This document shows, piece by piece, positions 7,201-41,102 of a stretch of DNA of 64,000 nt. Location of the stretch: assembly GCA_043228905.1 (NCBI GenBank), contig JBHGNT010000020.1:14322001-14386000 (forward strand). Direction: 5' to 3'. A model generated the notes under the pieces. That model did no database searches. It saw only the letters and a program-made list of their open reading frames with translations, and had not been told where the DNA came from. Numbering within the stretch: position 1 is the stretch's first letter; every line of letters starts with the position of its first letter. The DNA is from Azolla caroliniana. Lineage: Eukaryota > Plantae > Polypodiophyta. The translations under genes and the position numbers were made by a program.

Positions 7201-10200
7201 TTATGTCGGTGAACCAGTGTCCTATGCCGGCCAAATTCCATAAACTTGGGTCCGACGCGACCCCCTTTTTCCTCTCCCCGCTGCCCTCCGGCAAGGGTGC
7301 CGCGACTGGCCTCACCTTTCGGTCCATAGTCTTGTATTTTATATCTACGCAGGCCGTCCGATCCGACCTAACCCTTTCCTCGAAGTCGGCAATGACTTCG
7401 TACATCTCCACTGAGTTGACCGGAATCACCCGGTCTTCACTAAGGCCCTCATCGACCACCTTTCCCATTTCCCCTAGGGCGTCGTCGAAAGAGACCGCCT
7501 CCATGGTGTCGTGAAGATCCTTGACTACGTGCAGATTGTGAGGCCGAACCGCCGGGGTTCTGGACTGGAAGGATTCGAAGTTTGCACAAGCTTTAGCGAG
7601 AAAGTATTTAAGATAGATTGAAAGAGAGAGATTAAGATAAGATAGAACACTTGACTTTAGATTGAGAGAGAATAAGATTGAATTCTTGACTTTAGATTTG
7701 AAGAACAAGATTGATACATCAATTGGATAATGAGTTTCTTACTTTTAATTTCTTGATTAATACATCGCTCCCCCCTTTGATCTTTTTCACCCAGTCTTTT
7801 ATAGATGCTCCCATGCATATGATGCATGTGGGGGTACAAGACATGCATAAAATGCATGATGCATGTTTGCCATTTGGTGCTCATGCATTACATGTGATGC
7901 ATGATAACCATGTCACTCGTTTAAGCTCTCATATGAGAATTTCCATGTAAAAATATAATCCCTAAAGAAATGATTTGGCTTAATGTTAAGCTTGTTGCTT
8001 CTTATCTCGGAGGTGTAAAGTTCGAGTCTTGCTTACATCTTTTTCTTTTATGCACAAAATACTATTAGGCCTTTGGACCAAATATCTTTAAGACACCATG
8101 CACCGCAATCAACTGACCCGACCGATTCGTCCAATTTGCATCTGTTTGGTTCGGCCCAATCCGCATCCTGATACGGTTCGGTCCGCATCCCGAGTCACTT
8201 GTCGGTCACCAGCCGGTCGCTGGTTCTACCAGATGTCAGTCCTGTCGCCGGATGTCGGTCACCGGTTGCTGCCGGTTTTGGTTGGCCAAAACATTTAAAA
8301 GTAGGTAGGCCACACCCACTCATCCAATTAGCTTATTTCAAGTCACCTTGGACTCTCTATGTTCCACATAGAGACACAAAGATAATAGCTTTTGCTCTGC
8401 CTTATATATGGTAAGATCCTTATTTGTCCTGTCTATGTGGGATATCTCACAGTTTTATCTTTCTCTTTTCGTTTGCAAACTTTTCTACCCACATAACTTG
8501 AGACTTAGATGTCCGTTTCTTATGTAGTAAAGTGCATTCGAAAACTCTTGAAGACCTCCATCTTTTTGTACTAAGATATTAAACTTATTTAAAATAGTAT
8601 TTTCACTATTATTGTTTTATATGATTCATACTCGATTTCGTATCTTTTATGTGACTTTCACACCATTGCCGAAAATCTTCACGACAACGACGCTGCTAAT
8701 TTCTTCGTCGAGTTTGAGGACTCCGCACTCTTTGAAACGTTCCTCGTCCCTCTTCTTCTCCCGGCCACCGACGCCGACTATCGTACAACCTCTATTGTCG
8801 GAGACCCAAAACTTCCTACCTATAGTACACTTGTGGGGTTCTGTTGGAGTGTCCGGACTATCACGGTCCCACGCCTTGATAGCCCGCTCTAAAAATCCCA
8901 TCGGCTGTCGCCGTCGAGGGTCTCGCGGTTATGCTTATGGTTCGGTTGCACTATCAGACATTGGACGGAGTGTCACCCATCTTGGCCTTTTACGTGTGTG
9001 TATGTCGCACCATTATCCAACACCTTTGTCTCCATGCGTGTCGTCGTAATGTACGGTTCACCGAGTATCACCGCGTGCGAGGATGTCTCTTGCACGAAGA
9101 AGTGCTGATCAATCTCTACATCACCGATTTTCACACGTACATTCGGGTAGGCCCTGTGTAGCTCCTCCGTGGCGCGTGTCGCCGTGTGTATCGTCCACCC
9201 ATGCTTGGTGTTGATCAACCATTTTCCCTTCTTATAGAAGTCCATAGACATCAAGTTGATCTCCGACCCGTGGTCGATCAACGCCACTACTGGCTCCTCG
9301 ATGTCCCCAACCCGAACGGGGGTTTCCGTAGTAGCCCTCGCTCAACACAACTTCGAATAGTGGCTCGCCGCCAAATCGTCTTTCATGGCCACGTCCTCCA
9401 GGTGCGTTGTTTGCACCTCCACCGTCTTCTCTAGCTCCGGCTCCGGCTCCGGCTCCGGCTCCGTTGAGTGTCGTTTACGCTTCACCAAGTCCACGATGGA
9501 ATCGTGGAACTCCTTCTTGGCGATCTCGAGCACCTCCCTTAGCGACAAATCCACCTTGCTATTGAGAATCTGCTCCTCGAGGACCTTCCGCAGGTCCGTC
9601 GTCCTTTCGATTTCGGTGCCCAGCGGGTAACCGGTCGGCCTTGTTTTGTCTGCCATGCCGGAATTGCCGGCTTCATTCCTCTTCGGCCCGAACCGGGTCT
9701 TGTACCGATTCGGGGCCGTGGTCCCACCGGGCTTCCCTGCCCTCTTATCATCCACCAGAACATCGTAGTTCTGGCACGCGGCTTCCACGAAGCTGGTCTT
9801 CTCCTCTACCGTGTTGTCCCACCCGGTGACCTCCCGGACCCGCTGCTCCGCGCGGTTCGCTTCTTCCCTCTTCAATCATGCGCCGGAGAGGCCTTCTAGC
9901 ACCAAGGGCCAGAAGCCAGAGTCTTTTGTTTTCCGGACTTCGTTACCTCCTACTCGAATTCCGGCAAATGCCGAATAATGGACCACCTCTGCATGGTGCG
10001 CCTCCGCTTCTTCCATTAATTGCTTCATCCCGCCATGCCCGAAATTTGTCTCCACGGATCTCCGGGTATTACCAGCGTGCACCCGTCCGTTCCACAGGTA
10101 CACCATATTACCCCTGAGGGCCTCAACAAACTCCACACAATCTCGCTAGCTGTGTCTGACCGCGTTGCACCACATACACTGTTGTAAAACCGGTGGCCTT

Positions 10201-11018
10201 CGGTCGCGTCGCTGCCCTCCACTGTCTCTCCAGGCCTGCACGATCTACAGGTCGTGCACCATTTATGTCAGCTCCTCAAGAGCCACTCCTCCGGATGGGC
10301 CCTTGACCACACTAGTCGAGGCCGAGCCCATCTCGAGCCAATCCCGAGTTTCCTCCTTTTGTGCCGGCGAAAGCTCATCAAACTTCCTTGCCAGGACGGG
10401 TCTCGCCGTCAACGATCCCTCATCGCCCCACTCACGTCGTTTGTCAAAACGGTCGCAGACTCTCTTCACCATGGCCCAGTCGGTCGTCAGCCTGTCATTT
10501 GTCTCCAGCAGGAGACCCACCTGATCTGATATCCCACGTGTCCACGACTTTGACAAACAACAAGACACGGCTCTGTCCAATGTCGAAAGGCGCGCGAAGT
10601 GTTCTTTAAACTCCCGGAGAAGCGTTGGCACATTCCTCCCGTTTCCGGGGGTCTCCACCCAATCCAGGAAATCTCTCTTTGATAGCCGAAGCGCGTCATC
10701 GAGCCCGTACCTTTTGAGGAGCCGCCCCTCGAACTCTTCCCAGGTCCGGCATCCGGCCTGCACCTCGAGCACCTCCGCGTGCATGCCGAGTGTTGCAAGC
10801 TGAGGGAATCCGGCCAGCCGCCTGTCCTCCGAAATGTCCCTCATCACCATCTCGGCTCGATATGACACCGGATAGCTCATGGCGTTCTTCCCACTGAACT
10901 GGCCTATTGTGCCGACAATTGCTTCAATGGCCCTATCGAGGGCGCCCGTGCCCTCGCGACCACTTACTATCCGATCCATTGCTGCCACCATGGCTTCGGC
11001 GAGCTCCGATCCCCTCAT
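4300..11018 (-). pseudogene. gag-pol of element B: gag (10263-11018, 9342-10136), protease (8973-9287), RT (6243-7506), RNase H (5506-6177), integrase (about 4300-5418)
   Basis: ALIDHGSEINLM protease, DLYSGYDQF RT, H-H-C-C integrase zinc finger (HHESPWAGH...CESCQ), D-D-E core and GPY motif. Order RT-RH-INT is Gypsy. No chromodomain seen. Frameshifts and stops. Confidence 0.92.
7507..8686 (-). mobile_element. Gypsy solo LTR inserted into pol of element B (same family as 33331-36101)
   Basis: 12-bp terminal inverted repeat TGTCGTGAAGAT...ATCTTCACGACA; homologous to 35076-36101. Host protein resumes across it (ISSVV|MEAVSF). TSD is degraded (ATGG/ACGA). Confidence 0.88.
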
Positions 11019-11438
11019 CTTCGACTCCTCTGCCTCCTTGTTTCACGTCGGGTTCACCAAATGATGTCGCGTTGTTCCGCTTTCGCGTAGGAAATAAGGC
11101 GGGACCGCAGTGTCGCGAAGATTCGTGTGTGCGTGTGCTACTCGAGCGACCACCGGGGTCTCGGACTGGAGAGGATGTTTGCAGAATTATCGAAGAGATG
11201 ACGATCAATGTAAGATTAGATGAAATTGGTTTACTTGAGAAGAAGAAAGATTGTACACTTGAGAAGTAGAAAAATATGAAGAAGATAAAGAAAAATATAA
11301 TTATATTGATGATAATGGTGTTGGTGATATCACAATTGAGCCCCCCTTACACAAGCCCAACTGGAGGCTTTTATAGCTCTTTCCAATGTTGTGACATGCA
11401 CAAAACCATGGGCTAAAACCATGGTTTTGTGCACACGG

Positions 11439-12071
11439 TGTCTTGAAGAATACCGTCCCTTAGCGCAATCGGTGCATAGAGCGCGAGAACCGGCTCTTCA
11501 CGCCTGCGCGGCCTTTAATGTATATAATAGAGAATTAGGTACAAAGGTATATCCTAGGTAGTTAGATTCGGTAGGTAGGAAGTTAATGAGGGAAAAGACT
11601 CCCTGCTTGAAGCTATAAAAGAGAGGGAGACGCGGGGAGAAAGGGATCGCGCATTGAGGAGGACGAAGTGCTGTCGGACAGAAACCGAACGCTTCTCCTC
11701 TGTTCGTGCTCCATCGCTCTTCTCTGCAGGTTTTCAGGAGGCTCGCGCTGCTTCGAGGAACGCCCGTGTGCTTCCGGAAGCACCTCCATCCTATCCCCTT
11801 TCGTGCGCAGACGAGCAGGCATCGACATCTGTTCGCCGGCCTGTTCGGTTGTAACCGCTCGCGTGCTCTGTTGTTTATTTGTCATTCGTTAATATACAAA
11901 CATTCATGTCTCTCTGTCTCTGTGTCCATTCGTGTCTTCCGCGTTGACAGGCCGTGTCCCTGTGTTTCTTTGCTCATAACCGGGCGTCTCTCTCTTTCTC
12001 TCCCCCCCTTCTATCACCTGCTCTTCGGTTCAAGACCCCGGTGGTCCCGCCTCATTTCTCCACGCACGTGC
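11439..12071 (+). mobile_element. Truncated LTR (resembles the B LTR, opposite orientation) nested in LTR X
   Basis: Begins TGTCTTGAAG after ACGG; has TATAAAA at ~11614. Its 3' end (GGTCCCGCCTCATTTC) resembles the reverse complement of the B LTR start. Confidence 0.55.
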
Positions 12072-12609
12072 TGTCGTGACGATTTTCGGCTATGGTGTGA
12101 AACCGAGTGAGACGAATAAACCAAGGATGTGCAACACATGCACTTAGCAAATAAACGTAAGGCCTAGTGGCACTTGAGTTCATACAGAGAGGTGCAAGCA
12201 AGGTTTGAACATTGCCTTACCATTAGGACAACTATCATATAGTGTAGATTTTATGTATTTCCTTTTTATCTACGAATTATAGATGAAACAACCATAGAAA
12301 ACCATGTGCACAAAACCATGGGTTTAGAACCATGGTTTTGTGCACATGGTTTTCTATGGTTGTTTCATCTATAATTCGTAGATAAAAAGGAAATACATAA
12401 AATCTACACTATATGATAGTTGTCCTAATGGTAAGGCAATCATCTTGTATCTTAGAGGTGCAAGGTTCAAACCTTGCTTGCACCCCTTTGTATGAACTCA
12501 AGTGCCACTATGCCTTAGGTTTATTTGCTAAGTGCATGTGCAATGTTTGCACATCCTTGGTTTATTCGTCTCACTCGGTTTCACACCGTAGCCGAAAATC
12601 GTCACAACA
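12072..12609. repeat. About 540-bp inverted repeat with a perfect 111-bp inner stem and 8-nt loop
   Basis: 12211-12321 is the exact reverse complement of 12330-12440. Outer arms 12072-12210 and 12465-12609 differ by about 6 substitutions and a 6-bp indel. Confidence 0.95.
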
Positions 12610-13100
12610 GCGGGGCCTTGAACTGAGGAGCAAGAGAGAGAAGAAGGCGGAGCGCGAGAAGACTGCAAGCACAAGCCGGTTAGGCCCGTTTGCCATTGAC
12701 AGCGCTTGCCAACCGAATGAACCACTAACACGTAACTGAACAAGATGCACACTCGCATAAAGAGAGAGACACAAAAACACAGAGAGAGGGAACACAAGAG
12801 GTTCGATTCCTATAACATCAAAGGTTACACTGTTTGCAAGATTACAACTGGATAGCCAGCAACAGACCCAACCCAGACAATCACACACCAACGCACACAC
12901 CCAGTAGAGCCCTTGCCGAAAGCACACGGCTTTCCTCGAAGCAGAGGCAACCAACTCAGAAAGCTGCAGAAAACAACGGTAGAGGAGGAGAGAGCTCGGT
13001 TCCCAGTCTGAGAACACCTTGTCCTTGCCAAAACGCGATATCTTTTCATCCATCTCCCCTTCCCTTTTACAGGCCACCGAGGAAGGACCGTTACATCCGG

Positions 13101-14451
13101 TGTCGTGAGAATCCGTCACTATGTGCGGATCGTGAGACAGAACCGTTGGGGTTATGGACCGGAAGGAATTAGTACACACACGCACAACACAAGCAATTTT
13201 CACATGTAAGACAAGTAGGTGAGAGGAAACATTCGTTTATTGCAAAAGAAATCGATTCTTTATAAACTTAGAATCATGTTACAATGGATTGGATATGAAT
13301 ATAAAAGATCATTCTTAAAAAAGAAAGGAGAGGTCGAATATGAATGAGAGATTATTCTTGAAAGGAAGGAGCCAACAACAATGTAAGGAGTGGTCCGATA
13401 TAAATAAGAGAGAGTTTTCTTCCCCAAGGCATGGGAGAGAGAAGAAGGGAAAAAAAAGTAGAGGGAAAAAATGGAACATATATCAAGCTCTTTGTTAATC
13501 CTCCTTCCCAATGTTACTTTGCATGTCCAGTTTTAGTTGCATGGCCTCTACTTTTAGTTGCATGCTTCCATTTTTAGTTGCATGCCTTTTACTTTTAGTT
13601 GCATGGCCTTGGCTTTAGTTGCATGCGATCGTCCGTATAATTCGGCTAAATGACCCAATCATCCATAAAGTTTAGCCCGTGCACAATCCGTACGTGCGTC
13701 GCAACCAAATCGTAGACGCGTTCGCGCGCAAAAGTCTTGACCGCGCAGTGTACACATCCATGCACGCGCGCGTCCCGATTGCGCCGTGTACGCATCCGCA
13801 CACGCGTGCCCCGACCGCGCCGTGTAAGCATCCGCACGCTCGTCCGCACACAAGCACCTGTCCGAGCGTCCCACAAGGCCGTGCACAACCACGTTTGTCC
13901 GAAACGTCCACGCGACCGTGCACGCGTACGCCCGAAACTTGCACACGCGCGTACGTCGATAACTTGCACACGCACATACGTCCGAAAACGTCCACACGGG
14001 CGTGCACACACGCACGTACGCCCGAAACGTCCACATGGTGGTGCATACACGCGTACGCCCAAAATGTCCACATGGTGGTGCATACACGCGTACGCCGAAA
14101 ACGTGCACACCACACCGTGTAGCCCAAGTCTCCTTGATATTCTATGCTCCACACATTAATAGAATAAATATATTTTGGTTTCCCTTATATATGTTGGGTT
14201 CCAATGTTGTTCTATCTATGTTGGGTTCCAATGTTGTTCTATCTATGTGGGATTTCTCACAGTTTTGTCTTTTTTTTTTTTTTCTTCAAACTTTACACTC
14301 ACATAACTTGGTACTTGTTTATTCGTTTCATGCGTAGTAAAATACGTTATAAAGCTCTTGAAGACATCTATTGTTCCATATCAATACATTAAGCTAATCT
14401 TAAATAATTATTTTACTAGTTTTCATATCGTGTGTGAAAAACCACACGACA
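13101..14451 (-). mobile_element. Gypsy solo LTR inside the 5' LTR of B
   Basis: TGTCGTG...CACGACA termini, TSD CCGG/TCGG. The B LTR is continuous across it (compare 3955-3975). End region is homologous to 40310-41250, inverted. Confidence 0.88.
13530..14120. repeat. Minisatellites within the solo LTR: ~21-bp TTTTAGTTGCATG repeats (13530-13626) and a CG-rich CACGCGTACG/CCGAAACGTCCAC array (13680-14120)
   Basis: Direct inspection of repeated units. Confidence 0.85.
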
Positions 14452-15522: not shown

Positions 15523-15760
15523 CCGTAGCATCTCCGCCTTGTAGTTCCGCAAATAACGTGACACATCCTTCCCGTTGAATTGCCTGTTCCGTTGCACATC
15601 CCGCTCTACTACCGCCGCAATCTCCGACATCGCATGTTGTTCTTGTAGCATCCGCTCGAACATTGTCATCATATTGTTAGCTTCTTGTTGATTTTCCATC
15701 TCCTTGCCACCGGGTTTCATGTCGGGTTCACCAAATGTGTCGTGCCTTTCGGCGCCGGAT
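15523..15760 (-). mobile_element. 5' fragment of a further Gypsy element (gag N-terminus, tRNA-Trp PBS, start of LTR)
   Basis: FNGKDVSRYLRNYKAEM gag motif, PBS 15716-15733, LTR begins TGTCGTG at 15738. Gag is cut at 15522 by the end of another LTR (CTTCACGACA). Confidence 0.8.
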
Positions 15761-16490: not shown

Positions 16491-16583
16491 TCTTCTCCCC
16501 CTCCTTCTTCTTGTTGGTCGGTTCCTTTTTACTCCTTGTTAATACAGTTTTATGTATACATTGCGTTCTCCCTCCCTCCCTCC

Positions 16584-16585
<2 letters not shown>

Positions 16586-16629: not shown

Positions 16630-16633
<4 letters not shown>

Positions 16634-17535: not shown

Positions 17536-17996
17536 TGTCATGATAACACTCACATCATGCATCGAAAGGATCATGACACTCACATTATGACTCGAAAGGA
17601 TTTGAACCCACGACCTTGTTGTACACATGTCAAATCCTTAACCATTGTATTAACATTCTTATATGTATAGTTTTTAGAATATGAAATCTAATATCATAGG
17701 AATATTCTATATAACTCTACATTCTAGAATGACCTAGAATATTCTAGAGTGTTCTATACCACTAGAACCTTCTAGAATACTCTAGAGATCTTCTAGACTA
17801 CTCTACATTCTAGGATAACCTAGAATATTCTAGAGTGTTCTCTATTACTTATAAATAGGGATCTACCACCCATCCCAAACCTAAATTGGTTCAATGCCAT
17901 TTTGTAGCCTACTCTTTGTAATCCATTTTACTCTTCAATATAATAATTCTCTTTCAATTATCTCTCTATCTCTCTTTCTCTCTCTTCGTCTTGATA
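17536..17996 (+). mobile_element. 461-bp solo LTR in gag of Copia C, with a heat-shock-element array and a tRNA-like cassette
   Basis: Perfect 5-bp TSD GAGAG on both sides, termini TGTCATGA...TCTTGATA, TATAAATA at 17850. Gag frame resumes after it (KNAVNRVSIFQKLVRLRY). Confidence 0.85.
17698..17842 (+). promoter_or_regulatory. Cluster of heat-shock-element-like nGAAn inverted repeats upstream of a TATA box
   Basis: Perfect GAAccTTCtaGAA at 17765-17777; GAAtaTTCtaGAg at 17737 and 17823; TTCtaGAA at 17722. Confidence 0.65.
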
Positions 17997-27400: not shown

Positions 27401-28189
27401 TGTGGGCTCTAATGGTTTTTCCCGTTTAGGGTTTTCTACGTAAACATCATATGTCATCTCCAGTTCCATTTGTTCTCTTCTATTCCTTGTTGATGACTTG
27501 GTTGTGGCCGAGCGTTATTTCCGTACAATTATGTGGTGGTGAGTTTGTTGGCACTATATGTGTCTTTGTCGGCTATTGAGGTGTAAACTGATTGGTGCAG
27601 AAGCGTGTATGGATCTTTCGATGGAGTTAGCAAGCAATCACAAGATGGTCATGTGAAGTAGTGTACCTGTTCAAGAGAATATACACGAAGAGTGAGTGAG
27701 AGAGACTGTTACACTAAGACAATTTGGAGTTCAAGATGAATGTTATGTTATAATTCCCATTGAGCTAATGTTACAAGATACACTTATGTCTTATATAGTT
27801 AGGTTAACTAAGCCTTAACTTTGAGAGTATTCACACTAGGAATACAGTTGGGTGGAGTAGGACTTTTAGTCCAAAAAACTCCCCCATAAAAAGACTACTT
27901 TAATTGTTACAAGCGTGGGGGTAATCTCCCCCATGGACTTAAATACAATTTGAATTTTTAAGTTACAATTTGAATATAAAGAATACGAACTAGTTCTAGA
28001 ATCGGTAGTAGTTAAGTCGACTTGGTCGGCTCTTCTGCCAGTCGCCTTTTTCAGGCCTGATGCTAGACTCGAGTTCTTCTTCTGCTTCGTCCAATTCGGC
28101 TTTCTTGTTGTCTTTCACATGTTGTAGTTGCATATGTCTCCTTTCCCAATTCGGCTCTGAAGCATTTGTTTATGGGTGGGGGGGGGGGG

Positions 28190-28500
28190 GGGGGGTGGAG
28201 CCAAGAACAGCGCCACCCCTTTCCCAACGAGTTTACGTGTGAGAGAAGGAGAGAGAATTACGTGACAGAATAAGAGGGAAAATTCTATATCCCATTGTGC
28301 CCCATGGATGGGGTTTATATAGTACAAGAGGTAACCGTTACAAATAAAGAATGAGACAAGTAGGGAGTTACATTACTTACCCACTTTCTCATCTTTGTAC
28401 ACATGCACACAAATGTGCATGTGTTCATACACATACTTATCCTCACACACTCATATACATTACACATACACAACAACCACTTTATAATGTTCTACCCTTA
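28190..28500. repeat. Dispersed LTR-like repeat; inverted copy at about 42580-42920
   Basis: GTTACAAATAAAGAATGAGACAAGTAGGGAGTTACATTACTTACCCA and its flanks match the reverse complement of 42640-42790. Confidence 0.75.
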
Positions 28501-28959
28501 TACCGTCCCGTACACTCCTACGGTTAACAATGTTGACTTGGGAACGGCTTCGTCAAGCTATCGGCGATATTCACCTCTGTATCGACCTTCTATACTTCGA
28601 GCTTCTTCTCGATGACGAGCTCCCAGATATGGTGATACCTCACCTCTATATGTCTCGTCTTTGCGTGATGGAGAAGGTTTCGAATAAGGTGGGTTGTGTT
28701 ATGTGAGTCATAGTATAGAGTTGGAGCAAGGTGGTCGAATGGGCTCTTCGCCGAAAGGTCTACTGACAATCATTGCAGCCAAATTGCTTCATTTGCTACC
28801 TCTGACGCGACGATGTGTCAAATATAGGTGTATGATGGCCTTATTCACATTGTTCCACTTGGACAGACTAGGTTTAAGACAATTGTGTAAATATGTCGAA
28901 GGGCAGTTGCCCTAGCCCAATTAGTATATAACTGGCTTTGTAACCTAGTTGATGTTGAT

Positions 28960-29470
28960 GTTGATAGTGATGTGCATATGGAGCCGGCCACAACCGGCTA
29001 ACAAGAAAAAAAGAAAAGCAACAAGAAATAGAAAATAACAAAGACAAAGACAAAGAGTTTTAACTTGGAAACCCTAAATGGGAAAAACCATGGGAGCCCA
29101 CAAACTTCAAATATAATCACTATATGAGAGTTACAAGAACTCAAAGGCAACAACCTTGAGTTGATCTTCGTCACAGTGGATGGATGTACAACAAAGAGTA
29201 ACAACAACTTCTTGCTCTCACACACTTTCTCTCTCTCTTTGATTCTCTCTAATTATTCAACTCGAATAATCATCACTATATAGTTATGTTGCCCTAACTC
29301 TATCTATATATAGGTATTTACAAATATAGCCCTGTGTCGACTTCATGCCAACTTGCCTTTGGTCGGATTGGACGAGTCGGTTCGTAACTTAGCCGGCTCT
29401 TATACTGGTCCGGCTCATGATCAGATTAGCCAACATACATCCGGCTCTTGGTCGGATAGGCCCTCCTCCC
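28960..29470 (-). mobile_element. Degraded Copia-type LTR (C/D-related)
   Basis: GGAAACCCTAAATGGGAAAAACCATGGGAGCCCAC matches the reverse complement of the C LTR motif at 17105-17140. Ends are uncertain. Confidence 0.55.
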
Positions 29471-29479
29471 ATCAAGTGA

Positions 29480-31250
29480 AACCTCTGTCGAATACGGGTT
29501 TCTAATCGATGTATTCACATTGTCCCATTGGACACACTAGGTTTATGCTATTCTTGTAAATAGTGGAAAGGGTAGTTTCCCTAAGTCAGTTAGTATTTAA
29601 ACTGACTCTTGTAAACTAGTGTTAAGGTTGTTCATCCTTGTACATTGTGCCATTTTAACTTTAAGAGAGAATAATACAAGTTACACTTTGCTTGTGCTGA
29701 CTTTTTGTTTTCTCCTTTCCTTGTTTCATGTTGATCTTGCCCTATGATTCAGTTGTCTATTGTTCTTAAATTTGTTTCTCTCTATTCTCTGACGATCTTC
29801 AAAACAAAGAGTGTTGATATTGTTTCACACGTGACAGTCAATTACAACATCTGGTATCCGAGCTTGGTGTTTTTTCGATTCTAAATTCAGTCGCCTTCTT
29901 GTCTCCATCAGCAGCTCTTCTTTTGTCCCTTCTAAAGACCGTCATTATGACAACAGATTCCAAGATTTCGGCGAAGAGAGGCACCTAAAAAGTCTGCACT
30001 CCATAGTTCTAAATCACTCTTGAAGTAAGCCACTTGGCTATACTTTACTCCTGTGATTGTAGCCATTCGGAGTGAGACTTCATTTCGCAAGTTCTACCTC
30101 AATTATGCATCATCAGGTTAGATGGAAATTGAATAGGTCAGTTGATGTTATTCACTCGCTCGTCGTAACCACTCGTAGCAGATTCGGCTCCAAGGAACAA
30201 CACCTACTCTAGGGCTCCATGCTTCATTCGGCGATATGACATTGGGGAGGACCCATAGGTTCCGTCCCTCTCATCGTCGTAGTCATTCGAAGCAGGATCA
30301 GCCTGGATAATCATCACATAACCTATGATCGACATCTTGAAATCGACATTCGGAATCGAATCGGTAGTTAACTATGCTCATCTCGACCAAGCGATAATCG
30401 GGAAGACTAGTCGGCTCTGTCATTCCAATCATTGTAGACACTTCAAGCAAGTTTAGCACCCAACTGCTCCAAGAGTCCAAGTCGATTCGACTTGTGTCCA
30501 AATTCAACTAGAACGATATCGAGTGAGCATGTCAACTACATCCCACCATTGTTCATAGTCGACTCCGGACAGAGTCTAACAAGCCGACACAGATGACATC
30601 AACATCTAGCTCATCAGATATGAGTCTAAGGAAGTTCGATGGATCAAACTTCAACTTCTGGAAGGAGCAGATGCATGACTATCTAATAGTCAAGGGTTAG
30701 ATAGACCCAATTGAGACTGAAGACGCTCCTATAGGATACAAGTGGAATGAGTGGCAAAAGCTAGACAGAATCGTCCGCACCACATTCGGATGTACTTATC
30801 GGAGTCAGTGTACTTCACAGTGCAATCATGTTCGACTACCTTTCAACTATGGAAGACGCTCTCAAACACTTATTTGATTCAGCGCCTCTACAACCTTGAG
30901 ATGAAATAATCCGACTCGGTCCAGGTACACCTGAAATCGAGACCCAAATTTCAGCCTAGGGGATGACAATCAAAGACGAATTGAGAGCTATGTTGCTCAT
31001 GAGTAGTTTCCCCCCAGGTGCAATCCATCGATGAAAGTAGTAAAATACTCTGAAGTCACAAGCGCAATCCTCACTGAACCACCTCGGAGGAAATCATTTT
31101 CAAACAATTCGGCCAGTGACACCTATGTAGTACAAGGTTCGACCAATCGAACAATCGAGGAAGAAGTTCTTCCTAATCGCCGAACAATCAACGAAGTCGG
31201 AGCAAGTCTCAGGACAATCAAATCTACAACTATTGCAAGAAACCTGGACC
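29480..31250 (+). mobile_element. Truncated Copia element F: LTR end, PBS, leader and decayed gag
   Basis: LTR ends ACAACA at 29849, PBS TGGTATCCGAGC at 29852-29863. Gag motif KFDGSNFNFWKEQMHDYLIVKG at ~30630 and a zinc-knuckle remnant at ~31225. A related LTR segment lies at 28845-28950. Confidence 0.75.
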
Positions 31251-33330
31251 CCGTATGGAGGCGATGGAGGAGGCCTCCTACTACAATTGCGTTTCTAGGC
31301 CATGGCTGTGCTTCTTCTTCTTCTTCTAATTCTACTTTTGCTTTTACATTTGCATGCTCTTCTTTGACCCAAAATTAATTTTAAATGTTTTTGCTTTTGC
31401 TTTCACATTTGCATTTCTCTCCTCTTCTTTGACCCAAAACTAACTTAACGAGATGTCTTCTGGTAATCCAAATTCCAATGTCCATCTCTTGCATGTGCAT
31501 GTGTCAAGTTAAGATTGGCTAGGGAAGGCCCATCATTAGACCCCGGCCAGGAACCTCAACATATAACCACGTATCTTCATCAAAGTGAAAATGTATTGAC
31601 TGCACCAAGTGCCCAATTGGTCTCTTTGTTGACAACGGATGATCTTCATCCTAAACTCTTAGAGTTGACTACATATGTTCTTGGGTAATACTTGGAGCAA
31701 CCTTACCCTAACCACGTTTCTTCGCTCAAAGAAAGTGTGCTATAAGAAAATAGATGATCTCACCATGTGCTCAATTCATCTACTTATCAACAAAGCATTA
31801 TCGTCAACGTAAAATCTTCGTGCATTGCATATGCAATTGACAAGTCAAGAATGTGAGCACTCCCTTAATTCAACTCAAAAACATGGCATTCCCTCATCCA
31901 CCTCAATTGCTCTCATACATAGAAAGCAAACTATCGAGACTTCATTCTCAAGGGTTAGATTCAAGCACGAGATTTACACTTAGATTCAACCAGGGATTTC
32001 CGACTGTTGAGAATCAAGCTCAACTTGGTCTAGTGTGTGAACTCACCTTGAGAGTGAATAGACACTCCAACGGTCAAGAGTCACCATTATGTCACCACTT
32101 TGTATTCTAGCATTTAGTATGAGTCATAGAATCATATTCTATGACACATAACTTATGAGCTTTCACATTCCCCATGCTCCATGAGTCTTGTAGTTAATGA
32201 AGAGAGAGGGTGACTATATAAAGCACCCTCCTCCCACCATGTATAATGTTGTGTCTTTCTCCTTTGTGAATATTATCTACCTTGCGTATACTCTGTGTCT
32301 CACTCATTGTCTCTCTCACTCTCACTCTCATACACACACACACATAGTTCACACCTATTCCGCTACACAAGAATCACACCCGATTCTTTACATGGTATCA
32401 AAGAGATTTGGTAGCTCGATCTATAGCCCATTCGCCTCATCGTGATCGTGTGTTGTGCTCCACGCCAACGACCAAGAACCAGCACATCGCTATCGTAGCT
32501 TCGCTACATAGCTCGTATTCGAAGAGAGAATAAGAATCGACATAATGAATACTCAAATGGGGATGCATCAATACCTTGTCGGACAAGGCTATTGGAGCTA
32601 CATCAGAGGAGAGCACGAAGACCGACCCGCCAAAGCGGCTCCCGGATATGCGACATGGGGGCAAGCCGCAAGCCGTGTGATGTATTGCTTGGCGACATGT
32701 GTTCACAATCACATGCTCGGCTACATTCGCGAAGCCAGGACGCCGAAGGAGGCATGGGAAAATCTACGAAAGATTTTCGTGGCAAACACAACCACAAGAA
32801 GGCTTCAACTCCGCCAAGAGTTGAAAAACATTCAACAAAGGGACATGTCCATCACGACATACACCTTGAAGATCAAGGAGCTTTGTGTTCGTCTCGATAA
32901 GCGTAAGTATAGATGATGATGAGATGGTGCAAATATGCTTCGACGGCCTCGCACCATGGTTCGGCGCAATGCGAACCGCCATTCTAGAAAGGGAGAAATC
33001 TCCCTGCTTCTTCGAGCTTCAATCAATGCTATTGGTCAAAGAAAATCACGTGCGTACAAGGAGCAATGAGTCGGAAGGCCACATGCTCTACACGCACTCG
33101 AATGGAGGAAGAGGACGCGGACGAGCAAGAGGCCGATTCGGCCAAGGACAAGGCGGATGAGGTCCGACCTATGACAACAACTCCCAATTTCGGCCGTAAA
33201 ACGGAAGACAATGAGCAACCTTCGCAAGAAGGGGGAGCTTCCACTCCGGCCCGAGCCGTCAAAATGCAACCGAATGGGGATATTGCGGAAAGCTCGGCCA
33301 CCACGAAGAAGAGTGCCGAAAGAAGATCGT

Positions 33331-36101
33331 TGTCGTGAAGATCCGTGACTAGGCACGGATTGCGAGGCGGACCCGCCGGAAGGATTCGAAGTTGCACTTG
33401 CTTTAGCAAGAAAGGAATTAAGATAGATTGAAAGAGAGAGATTGAGATAAGATAGAACACTTGATTTTAGGTTGAGAGAGAGATTAAGATTGAACTTTTA
33501 TCTTTAGATTTAAGAAACAAGTTACACGATCAATTCGATAACGAATTTTCTTCTTCTTAATTTCATAACCAAAAGAGCCTAACCCTTCTTCTTTTTCATC
33601 CCTTCTTTTATAGATGCTCTCATGCATATGATGCATGAGAGGGTACAAGACATGCATAAAATGCATGTGTGCCATTTGGCACTCATGTACTACATGTGGT
33701 GCATGATAACCATGTCACTCATTTTAGCTCTCATGTATGTGAATTTACATGTAAAAGTACAATGATAGAAATATAAATTCAACTAAATGTCATGGCTTAG
33801 TGGTAAGCCTACTGACTCTTAACTAGGAGATGCAAGGTTTGAATCCTCACTTGCCCTCCTTGTATATATTTATTTATTTATTAATTTGGTCGCTGAATGT
33901 CGTTGCCTTTTCCCTTCTTCTCATATTCGAGAACGGAAGTCCAAAACTTTGCTCCCGCTCTAGTAGCTTCAGTCTTGTCTTTCCCTACTCGTATTCCGGT
34001 CGACGCAGCATAGTGCATCACATCCACATGAGTCGCATCGGCATCCTCCATAGATTTCTTCATTCCCCCTCTTTCGAAATTCACCCGTAGGGGTCTTCGA
34101 GTTTCAGTCGAGCAGATCATGTTGTCCTCTATGTATACGATATTTTTTCGGATCGCCTCTCGAAGGCTTGCACAATCCCTTCTCATGTGGTCCATGCTAT
34201 CACACCACACGCATCTAAAGGGTTCTTTTCCTTTAGGGACCCGATGATTCATGTTGGCTAGCATGACCTTCTCGAACTTCTTCGCTAGCTCTTCAATGAT
34301 GTCGTCATCAATCTTCTTTTCTTCCACGTTACTTTGTCTTGGTGGCTCAGCGGTCTTGCTTTCTCCGTGGTAGTTGATCCCATCAAGTCAGTGTCATCAA
34401 CCCATTGGCGACGCTTGTCGAGCCTATTGCATGACCGCTTCACTGCGATCCAGTCCGCTACAAGCCCATTTGCTTGGGTATCGTCTTCAAGAAGAGTCCC
34501 CAACTCCCGTCTATCCTTCATATCCACGGCCTTCAAGAAGTACAAAGTCTTGTCCTCTTCTGGGGAGATGACTAAACATCTGGTCGAATTCGTCGTACAC
34601 CCTCGAGGCGCTCATCTTCTTATTCTTCTTCTCTATCCACTTCATTAGGGCATGTCGAGTCATCCTCGTTGAGTCTTCAATCGCGAACTCCGCTAGTATC
34701 ATTTTCTCAAACTCGGACCATGTTGTCTTACCTTCTTGAAGTTCGATGACGCGTCTTTGGACATTGTTGGCGAAAACTCTCTTGAAGCTTGTGATTTGAC
34801 GTGCTTCAGACACGTCCCTCTGATTCATCTCCCTTCTATATGTATGAAGGAACTTCGTAACGTTCCTTCCATCAAATTGACCCTCGAGCTCTATGACACG
34901 GTCGACGGCCTTCTCCACACTCGCATCGTTGTCTCGAGATCTCATCATTTGTTCGACGATTAGCATCATCCTTTCCAGCTCTCCCGCTTGGTTGCTTGAG
35001 GACGCCATCTCCAAGTATTAATCTCGGCTTGATCCTTCCTACCGCCTCTCTCACGTCGGGTTCACCACTTAATGATGTCGTGAAGATCCGTCATTAGGCG
35101 CGGATTGCGAGGCGGAACCACCGGGGTTCTGGACCGGAAGGATTCGAAGTTGCACTAGCTTTAGCAAGAAAGGAATTAAGATAGATTGAAAGAGAGAGAT
35201 TGAGATAAGATAGAACATTTGATTTTAGGTTGAGAGAGAGATTAAGATTGAACTTTTATCTTTAGATTTAAGAAACAAGTTACACGATCAATTCGATAAC
35301 GAATTTTCTTCTTCTTAATTTCATAACCAAAAGAGCCTAACCCTTCTTCTTTTTCATCCCTTCTTTTATAGATGCTCTCATGCATATGATGCATGAGAGG
35401 GTACAAGACATGCATAAAATGCATGTTTGCCATTTGGCACTCATGTACTACATGTGGTGCATGATAACCATATCACTCATTTTAGCTCTCATGTATGTGA
35501 ATTTACATGTAAAAGTACAATGATAGAAATATAAATTCAACTAAATGTCATGGCTTAGTGGTAAGCCTACTGACTCTTAACTAGGAGATGCAAGGTTTGA
35601 ATCCTTACTTGACCTCCTTGTATATATATATGTGATATATATATATTTATTTATTAATTTGGCCGCCAGATATCGGATGCCACCTCGCCGGATCACCGGT
35701 TACCGTCCAGTTCCATTTTGGTTGGCCAAAACCTTTACGAGTGGCTAGGCCACCTCCACTCTTAGTCCAAGTTACCTTAAACTCTCTATGTTCCACACAT
35801 AGACACAAAGATAATAACTTTTGCTCTACCTTATATATGGTGAGAGCCTTATTCGTCCTATCTATGTGAGATATCTCACAATTTTCTCTTTTTCTTTCTC
35901 AATTTCTTACCCACATAAGTTGACACTTTGATGTTCGTTTCTTATGTAGTAAAGTGCATCTCTTCAAGATCTTCGTCTTTTGTACTAAGATATTAAACTT
36001 ACTTAGAATTAATATATTCACTATTATTGTTTTATATGATTGACACTTGATTTCGTACATCTTATGTGATTTTCACACCATTGCCGAAAATCTTCACAAC
36101 A
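33331..36101 (-). mobile_element. Internally deleted (gag-only) Gypsy element nested in Copia E
   Basis: TSD TCGT/TCGT, 5' LTR 35076-36101, tRNA-Trp PBS 35051-35067, gag 33895-35014 (CVWCDSMDHMRRDC knuckle). The 3' LTR 33331-~33894 is truncated and fused to gag. Confidence 0.93.
35545..35612 (+). ncRNA. tRNA-derived cassette with Pol III A and B boxes inside a Gypsy LTR (not a functional tRNA); homologues at 33787-33855, 7970-8035, 12418-12483, 40567-40635(-) and 17591-17655(-)
   Basis: A-box TGGCTTAGTGG (35551), anticodon-like loop CTCTTAA, B-box GGTTTGAATCC (35594) within a T-arm stem. No acceptor stem. Confidence 0.6.
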
Positions 36102-36141
36102 TCGTGAATCGGCTTCCACAAGCCGACAACTCACGAATTAC

Positions 36142-36285
36142 GCGCACAATTCCGACTACGAAGAGTATAGCGGAATGTACGGGCACAACTCCGACTACGA
36201 AGATCGTGGCGGAATGTATGGACACAACTCCGACTATGAAGATCGTGGCGGAATGTATGCACACAACTCCGACCGTGGTGGAATT
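36142..36285 (+). repeat. 39-bp in-frame tandem repeat (~3.5 copies, GHNSDYEDRGGMY) in the Copia E gag-protease linker
   Basis: Unit GCACAACTCCGACTACGAAGATCGTGGCGGAATGTATG is repeated. Confidence 0.9.
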
Positions 36286-39200
36286 TTCATGATGAAACAT
36301 AGAGCAAACTCTATGCTGGCCTCTACCTCAACTAATGCCTCTGGTCCGGAAGACGTATGGTTCATTGATTCCGGTGCCTCGAACCATATGACATCGCATC
36401 AAGAATGGTTCCTAGAACTTTGAGAGTTGGACCGACCCGGCGATGTCGAAACCGGAGACGACACTATGCACCCGATTCGGCACATCGACAATGTTCAGGT
36501 AAGCAAAATTACATTAAAAATGTCTTGCATGTACCAACCATTACGAAGAATTTGGTCTCCATCGGCCAAATTGTAGAGCAAGGGATACAAGTTCGATTTA
36601 ATCAAGGCGGTTGCTTCATCGAAAAAGAGGGCCGACTCATCGCTTGGGGATGAAGAGAGGGCCAAATGTTCATTCTCGACTCACACGAGATGAAATCGGC
36701 CATGTTCACAAAGGGCAGGAAAGCCGATTCCGACATAAAGTTATGGCACAAGTGGATTGGCCATATCAACCTCCAAAAGTTCAAGGCAATGCAATCGAAA
36801 GGAGTCGTCATCGGGCTCCCGACATTCACGGAGAAAGAGATTGAAGGCGTGTGTGTTGCTTGCCAATTTGGCAAGCCACATCAGCACCCATTTCCAAAGG
36901 AGCAGAATGTGAGCAAAGGCGTACTCGACGTAATTCATTCCGACGTATGGGGACCGGCGTAGACGGCTACATTCAGCGGATGCCAATATTACGTGCTCTT
37001 CATCGACGACTTCTCCAGGCACACTTGGATCTACCCGATGTGGCAAAAGAGCGAAGTGTTCAGACACTTCCAAACATTCAAGAATGAAATCGAGAAAGCC
37101 ACGGGCCGACATGTACGTTGTCTCCGATCGGATGGCGGCAAGGAGTACTTCTCGGACGATTTCACGGCGTATCTCCGAAAGGAAGGAATTCGTCGAGAAT
37201 TCACTTGCCAACACACTCCACAACAAAATGGAGTAGCGGAGCGCAAAAATCGGCACATCCTCGAAGTAGCGCGGGCCATGATGAATGAGAAGCAGATGCC
37301 CAAGTCATATTGGGCCAAAGCTGCAAATACGCTTGTCTACCTAATGAACCATTACACAACATCCGGCATGCACGAGGTCACTCTGCACGAAAAATACTTC
37401 GGAAAGAAGCCGGACTTATCGCACACCCGGATATTCGGCACGATAGCGTATGTGCACATCCCCAACGAGAAGCATCAAAAGCACGACCCGAAGTCCAAGA
37501 AATGTATCCTCGTAGGATACTCATTGGAGCAAAAGGGGTACAAGTGCTACAACCCCTCAACTCGAAAATCTCGAGTAAGTCAAGATGTTGTTTTTGATGA
37601 GTCCGCATCCTAGTACGCACCAGAGACAACTCCGACTCTGACTCCGCTTGACCCGGAATCCGCCGAACAAGAGATAGAGGATGAAGATCTCCTTATGCGC
37701 ATGTTCAAAGCAGACCACAAGAGCCTTTGAGCGATCAAAGCACATCACGGCCTAGCCTGAAGATGGACAAAGGCAAGGCGAAAATGTCCGACTACGAAGA
37801 CGATCGCTTCGACGATGATGAGTCGACTTACTCACTCGAGAGTGAGTTCGGCGGCTTCGATGTACCAATCGGAGCTAAGAAAGCCCTCATCTCTACAAAT
37901 GAAAAGCTCCTTCACTCCACCCGTGAAAAGAATCCGGTCAGCCGATTCGGCTACAACGACTACATGGCATATCACTATGCCTTTATGATGAAGGTGGCAA
38001 CAGTACGCGAGCCGGAAACATTTTCCGAATCAGCCAAGGATCCGCGATGGATCAAAGCCATGAACAAGGAGATGCAAGCACTACGCAAGAATAAGACGTG
38101 GGATCTCGTTCCCATCTCACCACACAAAAGGGTGATTGGATGCAGATGGATTTATAAAGTGAAGTACAACATCGATGGTTCCGTCAACCGCTACAAAGCG
38201 CGACTCGTAGCGAAAGGTTATGCCCAAACACACGGAGTTGACTACGAGGAGACCTTTGCCCCGGTGGCAAAGATGACAACGGTACGGACCATAATTGTGC
38301 TTGCCGCAGCGAAAGGGTGGCACCTCCATCAAATGGACGTCAAGAACGCCTTTCTACAAGGTGAATTAGAAGAGGAGGTGTACATGATACAACCACCAGG
38401 CTTCGAATCGCGCATTCATCCAAAAGCCGTATGCCAACTCAAGAAGCCACTCTACGGCCTCAAACAAGCACCGCGTGCTTGGCATTCGAAGATAACGCAA
38501 TATCTTCATCAAATTGGCTTCCGTGTGTCAAAATCGGACAACTCACTCTACATACGAAGCGATTCCGTAAGTCCGCTCGTCGTCATCTTATATGTGGATG
38601 ACCTAGTCATTGGAGGTGAGCATCTCGTCGAAATCAATAAAGTCAAATCCCTCGTGTCCGACAAGTTCGAGATGACGGACATGCAGGAGCTCCACTACTT
38701 CCTCAGCATCGAGGTAATTCGGACTCCAGCCAGAATCATGTTCTCTCAATGGCACTACATCCTCAACTTGTTATACAAGTTCGGGATGGCTGAGTGCAAA
38801 TCCGCAGCAACTCCGCTCGATCGCAATCTCAAACTAGATGCGAACTCCGGTACCAAAGTGTGTGAACCGACTTAGTATCGGTAACTCATCGGGAGTCTCA
38901 TCTACCTCACAATCACTCGACCCAATCTCAGTTATCCGGTCGGTCTCCTTAGTCAATTCATGCAAACACCGCGTGATACTCACTTGGATTGCGCTAAGCG
39001 AGTTCTACGATACGTGAGCGGCACAATGGATTGCGGCATCCTCTACAAGACCGTGATGCCAATACCCCTCAAGGGGTACACAAACGCCGATTGGGACGGC
39101 TACAAAGCTGATAGAAGATCAACCTCCGGATTTGTTTTCTCCCTCGGCAACGAAGCAATATCCTAAAGCAGCAAAAAGCAACAAACCGTCGCTCTTTTGA

Positions 39201-40438
39201 GCACAAAGGCAGAATACAGGGGCGTGGCAGTGGCCGCATGTGAAGCCGTATGGCTGAAAAGGATACTCAAGGATCTGGGCATACCCATCAAGGATCCGAC
39301 TTCCCTTTACTGCGACAACATGAGCAGTATCTATCTGGCTCAGAACCTGGTGTTGCACGCGCAGACAAAGTACATCGAAGTGCACTATCACTTCATCCGA
39401 GAGCGCATTCTAGCTGGTGATGTCGACCTACAACACATTAGCACAAATCTTCAAACGGCCGACATCTTCACTAAAGCCTTAGGAGCCGACAAGGTGTGGC
39501 AATTCATGACCGATCTCGGATTGACGATCCCTGATCTGCCAAGCTTGAGGGGGAGTACTGAAGACACTACGCAATAATGCGTAGATTCCGCACTACGCAA
39601 TAATGTGTGGATTCTGCAACCGCGCAACGAAGCCGCGAAGACGCGAAGAGCCGATCTACCACGCAAAGTTGTGAAGAATGACGCAAGCCGAAGCACTGAC
39701 TTTGCAACTCCGCACAATGCAAGCTGGAGCACGGATCCCGCAACTCCGCATAAATGCGAGTCGACGCGGACTTCGGAACACGAGTCGAAGCAGATTTTGG
39801 ATACCGTCTGAAATTGAGCCGACTTGGGCTTGAGGGGGCGTGGTGAGAATCAAGCTCAACTTGGTCTAGTGTGTGAACTCACCTTGAGAGTGAATAGACA
39901 CTCCACTAGTCAAGAGTCACCATTATGTCACCACTTTGTATTCTAGCATTTAGTATGAGTCATAGAATCATATTCTATGACACATAACTTATGAGCCTAA
40001 ACCCTTCCCCATGCTCCATGAGTCTTGTAGTTAATGAAGAGAGAGGGTGACTATATAAAACACCCTCCTCCCACCATGTATAATGTTGTGTCTTTCTCTT
40101 TTGTGAATATTATCTACCTTGCGTATACTCTGTGTATCACTCATTGTCTCTCTCTCTCACACACTCTCTCTCTCTCATACACACACAGTTCGCACCTATT
40201 CCGCTACACAATAATCACACTCGATTCTTTACACCGACTGTGAGAGAAAAGAAGACCGATGGAGTTTCGGTCAACAAGAGTTTTTGGCATGGGCTTGTGG
40301 GTTCAACGTTGTCGTGTGGTTTTTCACACACGATATGAAAACTAGTAAAATAATTATTTAAGATTAACTTAATGGTTTAATATGGAAAGATAGGTGTCTT
40401 CAAGAGCTTCATAACGCATTTTACTACACATGAAACGG

Positions 40439-41102
40439 TGTCGTGATGTGGCATGTCTAGTGCGAGAAAAAGTCAAAAATTGAGGATCCACACACATTTC
40501 ACGAATACTTGTAAAAATGAAAATAAATAAACCTAGGTCACAATGGCATTGAGTGCATGTAGAGGGTTGCAAGTAGGATTTGAACCTTGCACCTCTAAGA
40601 TAAGAGGCAATTACCTTACCACTAAAGCTACTACTAAGTGCTTTAGATGTTCTATATTTCTTTCTCATATTCAGTATTCCGTAGGAAACAAACGAACAAA
40701 ATTGTGTACACAAAACCACGGTTTTAAGCCCATGGTTTCCTGCATGTCACTAAGCAAAACTGTGTGCATAGAAACCATGGCTCCAAGCCCATGGTTTTGT
40801 GCATGGACAAACCTATAAAACCCCTAGTACCGCTTGTGTAAAGGGGGGGGCTCAATATGATATGACCATCATCATCACCATCAATAATATAAGCTTCTAT
40901 TTCTTCTTCTTTGCATCTATCTTGTAATTATTTATCTACTTCTCAAGTGTACAATCTTCAATCTTCTCAAGTCTAATAGGTCTTCCTCCAATCTTACATT
41001 TACATCTTCTTCTTCTCAATACCTTGACGGACATCCTCCTTGGTCCAAGACCCCAGTGGTCCCGCTCAAGCAAAGCACGCTCGCACGCGCATCTTCGCGA
41101 GA
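40439..41102 (+). mobile_element. Gypsy solo LTR (family X) nested in the 40310-42525 LTR
   Basis: Perfect TSD ACGG, termini TGTCGTGA...TCGCGAGA, homologous to 11111-11438 inverted, TATAAAA at 40814. Confidence 0.88.

Follow-up and report, generated by a model that had tools for sequence, protein, structure and literature searches.

How LTR retrotransposons remain transcribable within heterochromatin is a standing question, and the known plant counter-silencing strategies depend on proteins or on stress-factor sites. The locus analysed here, a 64,000-nucleotide stretch of the Azolla caroliniana genome (contig JBHGNT010000020.1, positions 14,322,001 to 14,386,000; referred to below as the window), carries a candidate for something else: an initial annotation had reported six tRNA-like A-box/B-box cassettes within LTRs, and the question is whether these belong to the LTRs and what they might do there. 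All six are present, in position and in strand, and one more brings the count to seven:

7976..8029, plus strand: decayed tRNA-derived A/B-box cassette with 3 mismatches, 172 bp from the TATA box at 7803 (minus strand)
12176..12235, minus strand: seventh cassette, with an internal 24-nt deletion, missed by the initial annotation and found by profile
12421..12474, plus strand: cassette of a rearranged family B LTR, found by A/B-box scan and by profile
17598..17652, minus strand: family E cassette, of a different tRNA origin (an independent capture), 197 bp from the TATA box
33793..33846, plus strand: cassette in the 3' LTR of a family A element, 180 bp from the TATA box at 33612 (minus strand), B box with C56T
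35551..35604, plus strand: cassette in the 5' LTR of the same element, 180 bp from the TATA box at 35370 (minus strand), B box with C56T
40576..40630, minus strand: cassette whose A and B boxes have 0 mismatches to the consensus, 183 bp from the TATA box

The window was scanned for an A box plus a B box, using consensus motifs, with 30 block shuffles as the null. At one mismatch or fewer there were four matches (33793, 35551, 40630 and 17652) versus none in the 30 shuffles, and at two mismatches six, five of them copies already cited and one inside a Copia LTR, versus a shuffle mean of 0.93. The 7976 cassette needs three mismatches, a stringency at which some nine matches are expected by chance; it is confirmed by BLAST matches to B-family cassettes and by a profile match (E 8e-14), from a profile whose own alignment contains this copy.

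At the cassettes ARAGORN made 0 tRNA calls and Rfam gave no RF00005 match, and the cloverleaf is lost. The acceptor and anticodon stems are gone, the acceptor stem as the initial annotation had claimed; its pairing averages 0.5–4 of 7 by family. The preserved GCAAGG/CCTTGC T-stem of the initial annotation is a narrower matter: canonical T-stem pairing is partly kept (mean ~3 of 5), and the perfect stem is confined to the 12.4-kb type, where it encloses a 6-nt loop instead of the canonical 7-nt loop. C56, a key base of the B box, is T in 16/62 copies and in 12/22 of those in families A, F and G, including both LTRs of the 33-kb element. An AT-rich tract lies 3' of the cassette in family A; at 35551..35604 a GC-rich hairpin arm comes first and then a (TA)n tract.

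The LTRs and elements that carry the cassettes are as follows:

7507..8686, minus strand: solo LTR of family A (Phygy-type Gypsy), TSD ATGG/ACGA, sitting in the pol of a host Gypsy
11111..12609, minus strand: nested, rearranged family B LTR within the host 5' LTR, broken at 11439 by another LTR
17536..17996, plus strand: solo LTR of family E (assigned to neither Copia nor Gypsy), 5-bp TSD GAGAG/GAGAG, sitting in a Copia gag, TATA box at 17850
33331..36101, minus strand: family A element, gag only and internally deleted, TSD TCGT/TCGT, sitting in a Copia
33331-33873, minus strand: truncated 3' LTR of that element
35051..35067, minus strand: family A primer-binding site (PBS), which fixes LTR polarity
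35076-36101, minus strand: 5' LTR of that element
40439..41102, plus strand: solo LTR of family B (Phygy-type), TSD ACGG/ACGG, TATA box at 40814

A further 4-bp TSD is GCAG/GCGG, and two of the window's 4-bp TSDs, both older, depart from identity by 1–2 transitions. The rearranged family B LTR folds back on itself over 12072-12609, where two U3 halves lie in opposite directions. LTR polarity can be set without use of the TATA box, with the PBS and gag on one side and the PPT on the other, and because this polarity is independent of the TATA box the cassettes can be placed antisense in U3; the claim that each points away from its LTR's own TATA box is thus upheld, with all copies antisense. The related Phygy LTRs of the window, at 13101-14451 and 3434-4165, have no cassette and neither do the Copia LTRs, so that the cassette is dispensable.

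A pattern search of metagenomes returned 74 matches, of which 63 lie antisense in Phygy-type LTRs and include two further families, F and G. These 63 loci were picked by a pattern that spans both boxes, and so favours intact ones, and come from one accession series; the other 11 (L020, L024, L048, L050, L052, L057, L058, L059, L062, L068 and L069) were dropped as having no relation to these LTRs. No free copy of the A/B-type cassette outside these LTR families occurs among the 63 matches, and public reads cover the cassette to a depth like that of the remainder of the LTR in both LTRs tested, A and E. The cassette is a component of U3 throughout its families, and the sporadic SINE insertions that the initial annotation had set against its own proposal did not appear. 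A free tRNA-derived SINE was likewise rejected for the A/B-type cassette, there being no dispersed copies among the 63. A rescan of 115,523 bases of these loci for further cassettes gave six matches, all in the family B palindrome and judged spurious. Viral contigs had 0 matches to the cassette pattern and 0 to a TATA-region pattern, and prokaryote genome contigs had 0 to the family E pattern.

When the complete LTRs of A, B, F and G are compared, they align mainly over the cassette and over short terminal blocks, and U3/U5 modules have been swapped among families (L010, L071). Families A, B and F adjoin gag, an integrase lies beside L037, element A measures 2.8 kb, and the TSD of L029 is ACGT/ACGT. 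The same PBS type, which we take to be that of tRNA-Trp, occurs in families A, B, F and G and in the host element. The 4-bp NCGN TSD and tRNA-Trp-type PBS are shared with Phygy, a non-chromovirus Ty3/gypsy lineage (Neumann et al. 2019, PMC6317226) for which the passages on it mention no tRNA-like LTR module. The host element is not of a cassette-bearing family; the closest named relatives of its integrase are from Riccia, and the integrase ORF had no chromodomain match. The carriers are indeed two Gypsy families with 4-bp TSDs and an LTR with a 5-bp TSD, as first described, but they do not make three independent cases: because A, B, F and G have one homologous cassette and shared terminal blocks, sequence comparison gives two origins, one for the Phygy-type families A, B, F and G and one for family E. 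Two origins are few, and their agreement in orientation and position says little for convergence.

The five A-box-to-TATA gaps first quoted were measured here as 172, 180, 180, 183 and 197 bases, each one base less than before. The spacing is not fixed at ~175–200 bp as had been proposed: it spans 142–221 bp (SD 19.5) in 43 A and B copies and 260–267 bp in family F, a range of 142–267 bp, and there is no helical phasing (Rayleigh p 0.19–0.42, 26 distinct values). Across five families the distance to the TATA box is the least variable, with a rough CV of 0.15; for the distance to the U5 end the CV is 0.26, and for that to the U3 end 0.88 (all from family values entered by hand). The interval itself carries motif arrays:

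17653..17849, unstranded: family E spacer, 6 GAAnnTTC/TTCnnGAA units
35372..35550, unstranded: TATA-to-cassette spacer of family A, 5 CATGCA/TGCATG motifs

The 7805-7975 spacer holds seven CATGCA/TGCATG motifs, which are of the RY type. GAAnnTTC/TTCnnGAA, of the heat-shock-element type, reaches a density of 30 per kb in the family E spacer versus 1 per kb in the window. The layout of the LTR is then cassette, transcription-factor motif array and TATA box, in that order.

What has been conserved bears on function. At the six A-box positions that the search pattern left free (T8, R9, G10, Y11, A14 and R15), all 63 distinct cassettes have 5–6 matches and 40 have all six, versus 3.8% (5–6 of 6) and 0.18% (6 of 6) in shifted controls. 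Between families, agreement is close to chance at the degenerate A-box positions and over much of the A-to-B spacer, and the A-box consensus positions are kept across families whose remaining U3 no longer aligns. Promoter positions are kept, in constant antisense orientation, while tRNA folding is gone and spacer and flanks have diverged between families. It should be noted that T8, A14, T33 and A37 are also invariants of tRNA structure, and that A/T bases resist deamination. An unbiased test on family E contigs was not significant (0/22 box positions variable versus 19/387 others, p 0.61).

On this evidence we tentatively favour the reading that selection keeps the cassette as a Pol III-type promoter with an effect in cis on its LTR, to which we would give somewhat less than an even chance. 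The cassette likely still attracts tRNA-transcription factors, and it may aid the element in escaping silencing. No universal Pol III terminator was found across the families, which suits a DNA-binding role more than it does a defined RNA. On this reading a Phygy-type Gypsy LTR of ancestral age and, in a separate event, an LTR with a 5-bp TSD would each have gained a reversed tRNA-derived segment in U3, perhaps from a tRNA gene or a SINE head, which selection likely retains as a type-2 Pol III promoter. TFIIIC would bind the cassette, with TFIIIB on the TATA-facing side, and this likely helps the Pol II promoter of the LTR itself to stay open; a nucleosome-poor or barrier effect would be to the benefit of elements that land at CG sites within other transposons (Phygy inserts at NCGN, according to the passages on it in PMC6317226). 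The antisense direction may be kept because any Pol III transcript would be directed away from the Pol II promoter. In its fullest form, which we consider possible rather than probable, the proposal is that these LTR retrotransposons captured the promoter of a tRNA gene on two occasions and carry it back-to-back with their Pol II promoter. It would be a TFIIIC barrier that travels with the element, an anti-silencing device within the LTR, and stress-responsive elements could thereby remain active after landing in methylated transposon nests.

There are precedents for the parts, as far as the portions of the sources used here describe them. The tDNA and TFIIIC barriers of Schizosaccharomyces pombe cen1 require TFIIIC and Pol III (PMC2040200), and in Leishmania a tRNA-like A/B unit drives an adjoining gene (PMC4950102, on trypanosomatid tRNA-like promoters); both place A/B boxes in cis on a neighbouring locus, as the candidate here would. 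They differ in being host loci with tested function that are not transposon-borne, and as the fission-yeast barrier works in either orientation (PMC2040200), it does not predict a constant antisense direction. We note that the hairpin around the B box has been kept though TFIIIC binding needs none, and that the frequent C56T, the loose and unphased spacing and the cassette-free sister LTRs also stand against a TFIIIC reading.

That hairpin is the starting point for a rather doubtful alternative, in which the cassette would be transcribed by Pol III into a short RNA of two hairpins (~70–110 nt) and selection would act on that RNA, which might serve as a decoy or give rise to small RNAs. The arm before the B box has a perfect 5-bp partner, and the predicted hairpin is thus retained, in 57/62 copies, as compared with 3.6% of the 418 windows that served as control. 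For A, B, F and G, folding predicts a 3' hairpin around the B box (it is out of register in the MAFFT cassette alignment), and the mean folding z is −2.4 in A and −2.5 in F. The folding z is equally strong on the opposite strand, and it is weak at −1.05 in B and +0.6 in E. T4 runs occur at +23 in 6/6 F, at +14 in G (1/1) and at +45 to +58 in 19/40 B, but 11/40 B have none within 200 bp (29/40 do) and positions in A are scattered. G-U versus A-C counts in B (29 versus 9 overall, 14 versus 9 off the pattern-fixed positions) show no clear strand bias, and loss of one stem partner is seen without preferential retention of the other (Fisher p 1.0). The precedent would be the U3 miRNA cassettes of foamy viruses, which, in the portion of PMC3993851 used here, are likewise A/B-box Pol III units with double hairpins (predicted in our case) in a U3 with its own Pol II promoter. 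Those have terminators, miRNA-length stems and proven expression, whereas the stems here, at ~10 bp, are too short for miRNA precursors, the terminators are inconsistent and the origin is tRNA-like.

It is unlikely, though worth weighing, that the cassette is a passenger under no selection: a SINE head or a fragment of a tRNA, long since fixed in an ancestral LTR, that reached the related families through descent and through exchange of modules. A single origin accounts for A, B, F and G, and the swaps in L010 and L071, the cassette-free sister LTRs, the frequency of C56T and the bias of the search pattern toward intact boxes are all in keeping with it, as is the statement that 'not a few' Repbase LTRs contain tRNA-like pieces (Kojima, in the portion of PMC10886601 used here). 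Recent neutral transfer would, however, keep the spacer no less than the boxes, and between families the spacer is instead near random, whereas identity is 0.84–1.0 at the A-box positions left free by the search pattern and in the GAGGT that precedes the B box; the 0 free copies among 63 matches also argue against it.

We think it improbable that selection acts on the opposite strand, either on a hairpin that U3 forms in the genomic RNA or in the single-stranded cDNA, or else on a second A/B-like arrangement that family B has in LTR sense. The antisense folding z is −3.1 in A and −3.4 in F, and family B has an inverted copy of the A-box core ~76 bp downstream which gives a reverse-strand profile match, but the inverted A box is seen in B only, position 56 of its sense-strand B box is T, and the A-box consensus fit on the cassette strand is left unexplained. 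Least probable is a self-limiting brake in which the cassette damps the LTR promoter, as in yeast tRNA-gene-mediated silencing: its geometry and conservation would be those of the Pol III promoter reading, the sign of the effect not being readable from sequence alone, but all four read runs show A and E as high-copy families (by depth, which is not copy number).

The initial annotation knew of no description of this arrangement in plant LTRs, which holds only for its antisense, divergent form. LTRs with conserved tRNA-derived A and B boxes and no functional tRNA have already been reported for Helenus/TRIMp3, alongside Cassandra and Ajax, with several independent origins and a proposed origin by SINE insertion into the LTR (PMC10886601, in the portion used here). 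Those elements are 311–1263 bp and non-coding, whereas families A, B and F flank gag and element A is 2.8 kb; their tRNA-like part, the proposed element promoter, is on the sense strand in the LTR records drawn from the supplement (judged by eye), whereas here it is antisense in the U3 of LTRs of 460–1180 bp with their own TATA box. In the same portion of the source the sole plant Helenus is from Selaginella, and 'Physcomit' has 0 matches in the supplement. No description of an antisense, divergent tRNA-like cassette in coding LTR elements was found in the open-access literature (Repbase reports and subscription journals lie outside it). Were the cassette a mere passenger, it would still widen the range of tRNA-bearing LTRs, both to plant elements that code for proteins and to an antisense placement. 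If the Pol III promoter reading is true, a Pol III module working in cis from U3 would differ from the known counter-silencing strategies, and thousands of solo LTRs would strew TFIIIC sites across host genomes.

All six tRNA-like cassettes proposed in the initial annotation were found in the window, together with a seventh copy, and the carriers and this additional copy are as follows:

7507-8686, family A solo LTR
11111-12609, family B rearranged copy
12176-12235, seventh cassette copy, internally deleted
17536-17996, family E solo LTR, 5-bp TSD
33331-36101, family A gag-only element
40439-41102, family B solo LTR

Our scan used consensus A-box and B-box motifs with 30 shuffles as background, and the cassettes exceed chance, with four matches at no more than one mismatch versus none in the 30 shuffles (six versus 0.93 at no more than two mismatches). 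Neither ARAGORN nor Rfam called a tRNA on any cassette, and the acceptor stem is indeed lost, with 0.5 to 4 of 7 pairs left by family in the canonical register. The T-stem, said to be preserved, keeps about 3/5 pairs in that register; the perfect stem described does exist and characterises families B, F and G, but it closes a 6-nt loop. An isolated tRNA- or SINE-like remnant at 53692-53737 (+), internally deleted, combines a perfect A box with a B-box-like segment that is repeated, and has no match among the retrieved metagenome loci.

In a domain search the window proved to consist of nested LTR retrotransposons that carry Gypsy and Copia domains. The closest named relatives of the host Gypsy integrase are from Riccia (about 60% identity), and it shares 75–83% identity with metagenome proteins. 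The 4-bp TSDs in the window agree with NCGN, a likeness to Phygy, for which the available part of Neumann et al. (PMC6317226) gives a 4 bp NCGN TSD and priming mostly by tRNA-Trp. On these likenesses the sequence would be taken for bryophyte, probably moss, DNA. LTR polarity is fixed, with no need of the TATA box, by the PBS and gag at one flank of the LTR and the PPT at its opposite flank (13 loci), and in family E by a purine tract preceding the LTR start (at loose contig ends) and by joints where empty host sites are visible; the cassette thus lies within U3 in antisense orientation, pointing away from the LTR's own TATA box as stated in the initial annotation. A 540-bp fold-back at 12072-12609 joins two opposite family B U3 halves at a spacer palindrome, with arms 100% identical across 111 bp. 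Gene segments at 43223-44220, 47435-48780, 52301-52785 and 59405-61435 are duplicated and partly inverted, with malectin-like domains in those at 47.4-48.8 kb and 60.0-60.5 kb.

Contigs from four public runs, which carry three organism labels, were placed on the family A and E LTRs (depth here does not give copy number, and the run with the best coverage may come from the source sample itself). On LTR A in run X1 the two cassette bins reached 38,846 and 17,773, other LTR bins 13,032–207,166, and the AT tract beyond the cassette dropped to 331 and 122, while contigs bridged the spacer–cassette junction in X1, X4 and X11; on LTR E the cassette bins were 28,000–43,000 versus 9,000–50,000 elsewhere (3'-end repeat excluded). 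A metagenome scan with the A/B-type pattern gave 74 loci, of which 11 were unrelated and excluded and 63 lay in Phygy-type LTRs (12 A, 44 B, 6 F and 1 G, the last two being new families found in these loci), with identical relative cassette orientation in 63/63. All 63 come from one accession series and the sampling is therefore narrow. With cassettes covered like the rest of LTRs A and E, and no free copy of the A/B-type cassette seen in the metagenome scan, the cassettes are family-wide and not sporadic SINE insertions.

The A-box-to-TATA gaps in the window measured 172, 180, 180, 183 and 197 bases, in line with the initial annotation, though the fixed distance it proposed gives way to a loose one. 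With the A-box TGG and the TATA motif as end points, which adds about 14 to the measure of the initial annotation, spacing in 43 A and B copies was 142–221 (median 195, SD 19.5), with values of 209, 260 and 267 in F, 183 in G and 212 in E; these were entered by hand, excluding locus L017 and any copy that had fewer than 150 upstream bases or lacked a homologous TATA. No helical phasing of the spacing was found. In A, B, F and G the spacers hold motifs of CATGCA type, and in E they hold heat-shock-type GAAnnTTC/TTCnnGAA units. The LTR layout is thus cassette, putative factor-binding array and then TATA, at a loose distance. The heat-shock-element-type array of family E spans 17653-17849, and this motif type suggests that E may be heat-responsive. 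Family B LTRs also have an inverted A-box core about 76 bp downstream (e.g. window 12460-12514 (-), and metagenome loci L008, L016, L019 and L029), which with the near-palindromic B box gives the LTR-sense strand an A/B-like arrangement of its own, the second in these LTRs.

The initial annotation named three carrier LTR families; their cassettes have two origins, one in Phygy and one in E, because the A, B, F and G cassettes are readily alignable with one another and their profile scores 47–79 bits on its own families and only 2.8 bits on E. Families A and B swap modules. With only two events, the shared orientation is a coin toss, and the short U3 of E leaves little room for other spacings. 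The window scan found no cassette in the related Phygy LTRs at 13101-14451 and 3434-4165, nor in Copia LTRs. Among the metagenome loci, L010:310-665 is a short TATA-less LTR (~356 bp) joining an F-type U5 end to a cassette-bearing B-type U3, followed by a PPT; L038 has a ~260 bp unit with TG..CA ends in which nothing of a B LTR is left but its cassette part (80 bp upstream to ~180 bp downstream of the cassette); in L001:1-40, a single case, a Copia LTR like that at window 32005 ends ~31 bp upstream of the TGG in the A box, close to the position expected for a Pol III start; and a tRNA-like head at L024:1415-1500 (36 bits on the profile), within unrelated DNA, resembles the head of an ordinary SINE.

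For the cassette, its position, its orientation and its presence throughout the families are established, as are the conservation of its A box and the loss of tRNA folding. We tentatively favour, at somewhat below an even chance, the reading that selection maintains it as a Pol III type-2 promoter with a cis effect on the promoter of the LTR. TFIIIC would bind the cassette, which may affect chromatin. The fission-yeast barrier functions in either orientation (PMC2040200, available part), so the antisense direction must be due to something else or reflect simple descent. It is rather doubtful that the cassette encodes a short Pol III RNA, a reading that can be true together with the cis-acting promoter. 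T4 runs occur consistently in F and G; in B they lie near +50 in 19/40 copies and are absent in 11/40, and in A they are scattered.

A neutral passenger is unlikely. In 63 distinct cassettes (deduplicated from 69, the 63 loci plus six window copies), six A-box positions unfixed by the search pattern matched at five or more in 63/63 and at all six in 40/63, versus 3.8% and 0.18% in shifted controls. Between families, identity is 0.97–1.0 at T8 and A14 and 0.84–1.0 in the GAGGT preceding the B box, the two degenerate A-box positions are variable and much of the spacer is near random; what aligns in full-length LTRs is mainly the cassette together with short blocks at the termini. Because the copies are related to one another, the effective sample amounts to four or five lineages. 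C56 is T in 16/62 copies (12/22 in A, F and G, where G57A occurs in 3, and in the 33-kb element at both of its LTRs), a frequency that counts against strict B-box selection, and the one unbiased conservation test, in family E, was not significant (p 0.61). The cassette is real and family-wide and is probably under selection; it arose twice, and its distance from the TATA is loose.

Families A, B, F and G each have a predicted hairpin around the B box, with a perfect 5-bp partner retained in 57/62 copies versus 3.6% of controls. Folding scores favour neither strand, nor do wobble counts show a clear bias. That a structure on the opposite strand is what matters is improbable, and a brake dampening the LTR promoter is very improbable.

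Comparable systems, each from the available part of its source, include Helenus, TRIMs with tRNA-derived A/B boxes inside their LTRs, and tRNA-like pieces in "not a few" Repbase LTRs (Kojima, PMC10886601); the cassette is not Helenus, because in the records examined that segment has the sense orientation and belongs to short elements that do not code for protein, whereas ours is antisense. Foamy viruses have Pol III units in U3 (PMC3993851), a likeness to the unit predicted here, and a tRNA-like A/B unit drives the Leishmania U2 gene (PMC4950102). The antisense U3 arrangement is unmentioned in the available parts of a Physcomitrium transposon study (PMC7466625), a sugar beet preprint (10.64898/2026.03.01.708851) and a plant tRNA review (PMC13578239), and our searches of open-access literature found no published description. 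Capture of tRNA promoters by LTR elements is known, and the antisense U3 cassette, a putative promoter, would be a further form of it.
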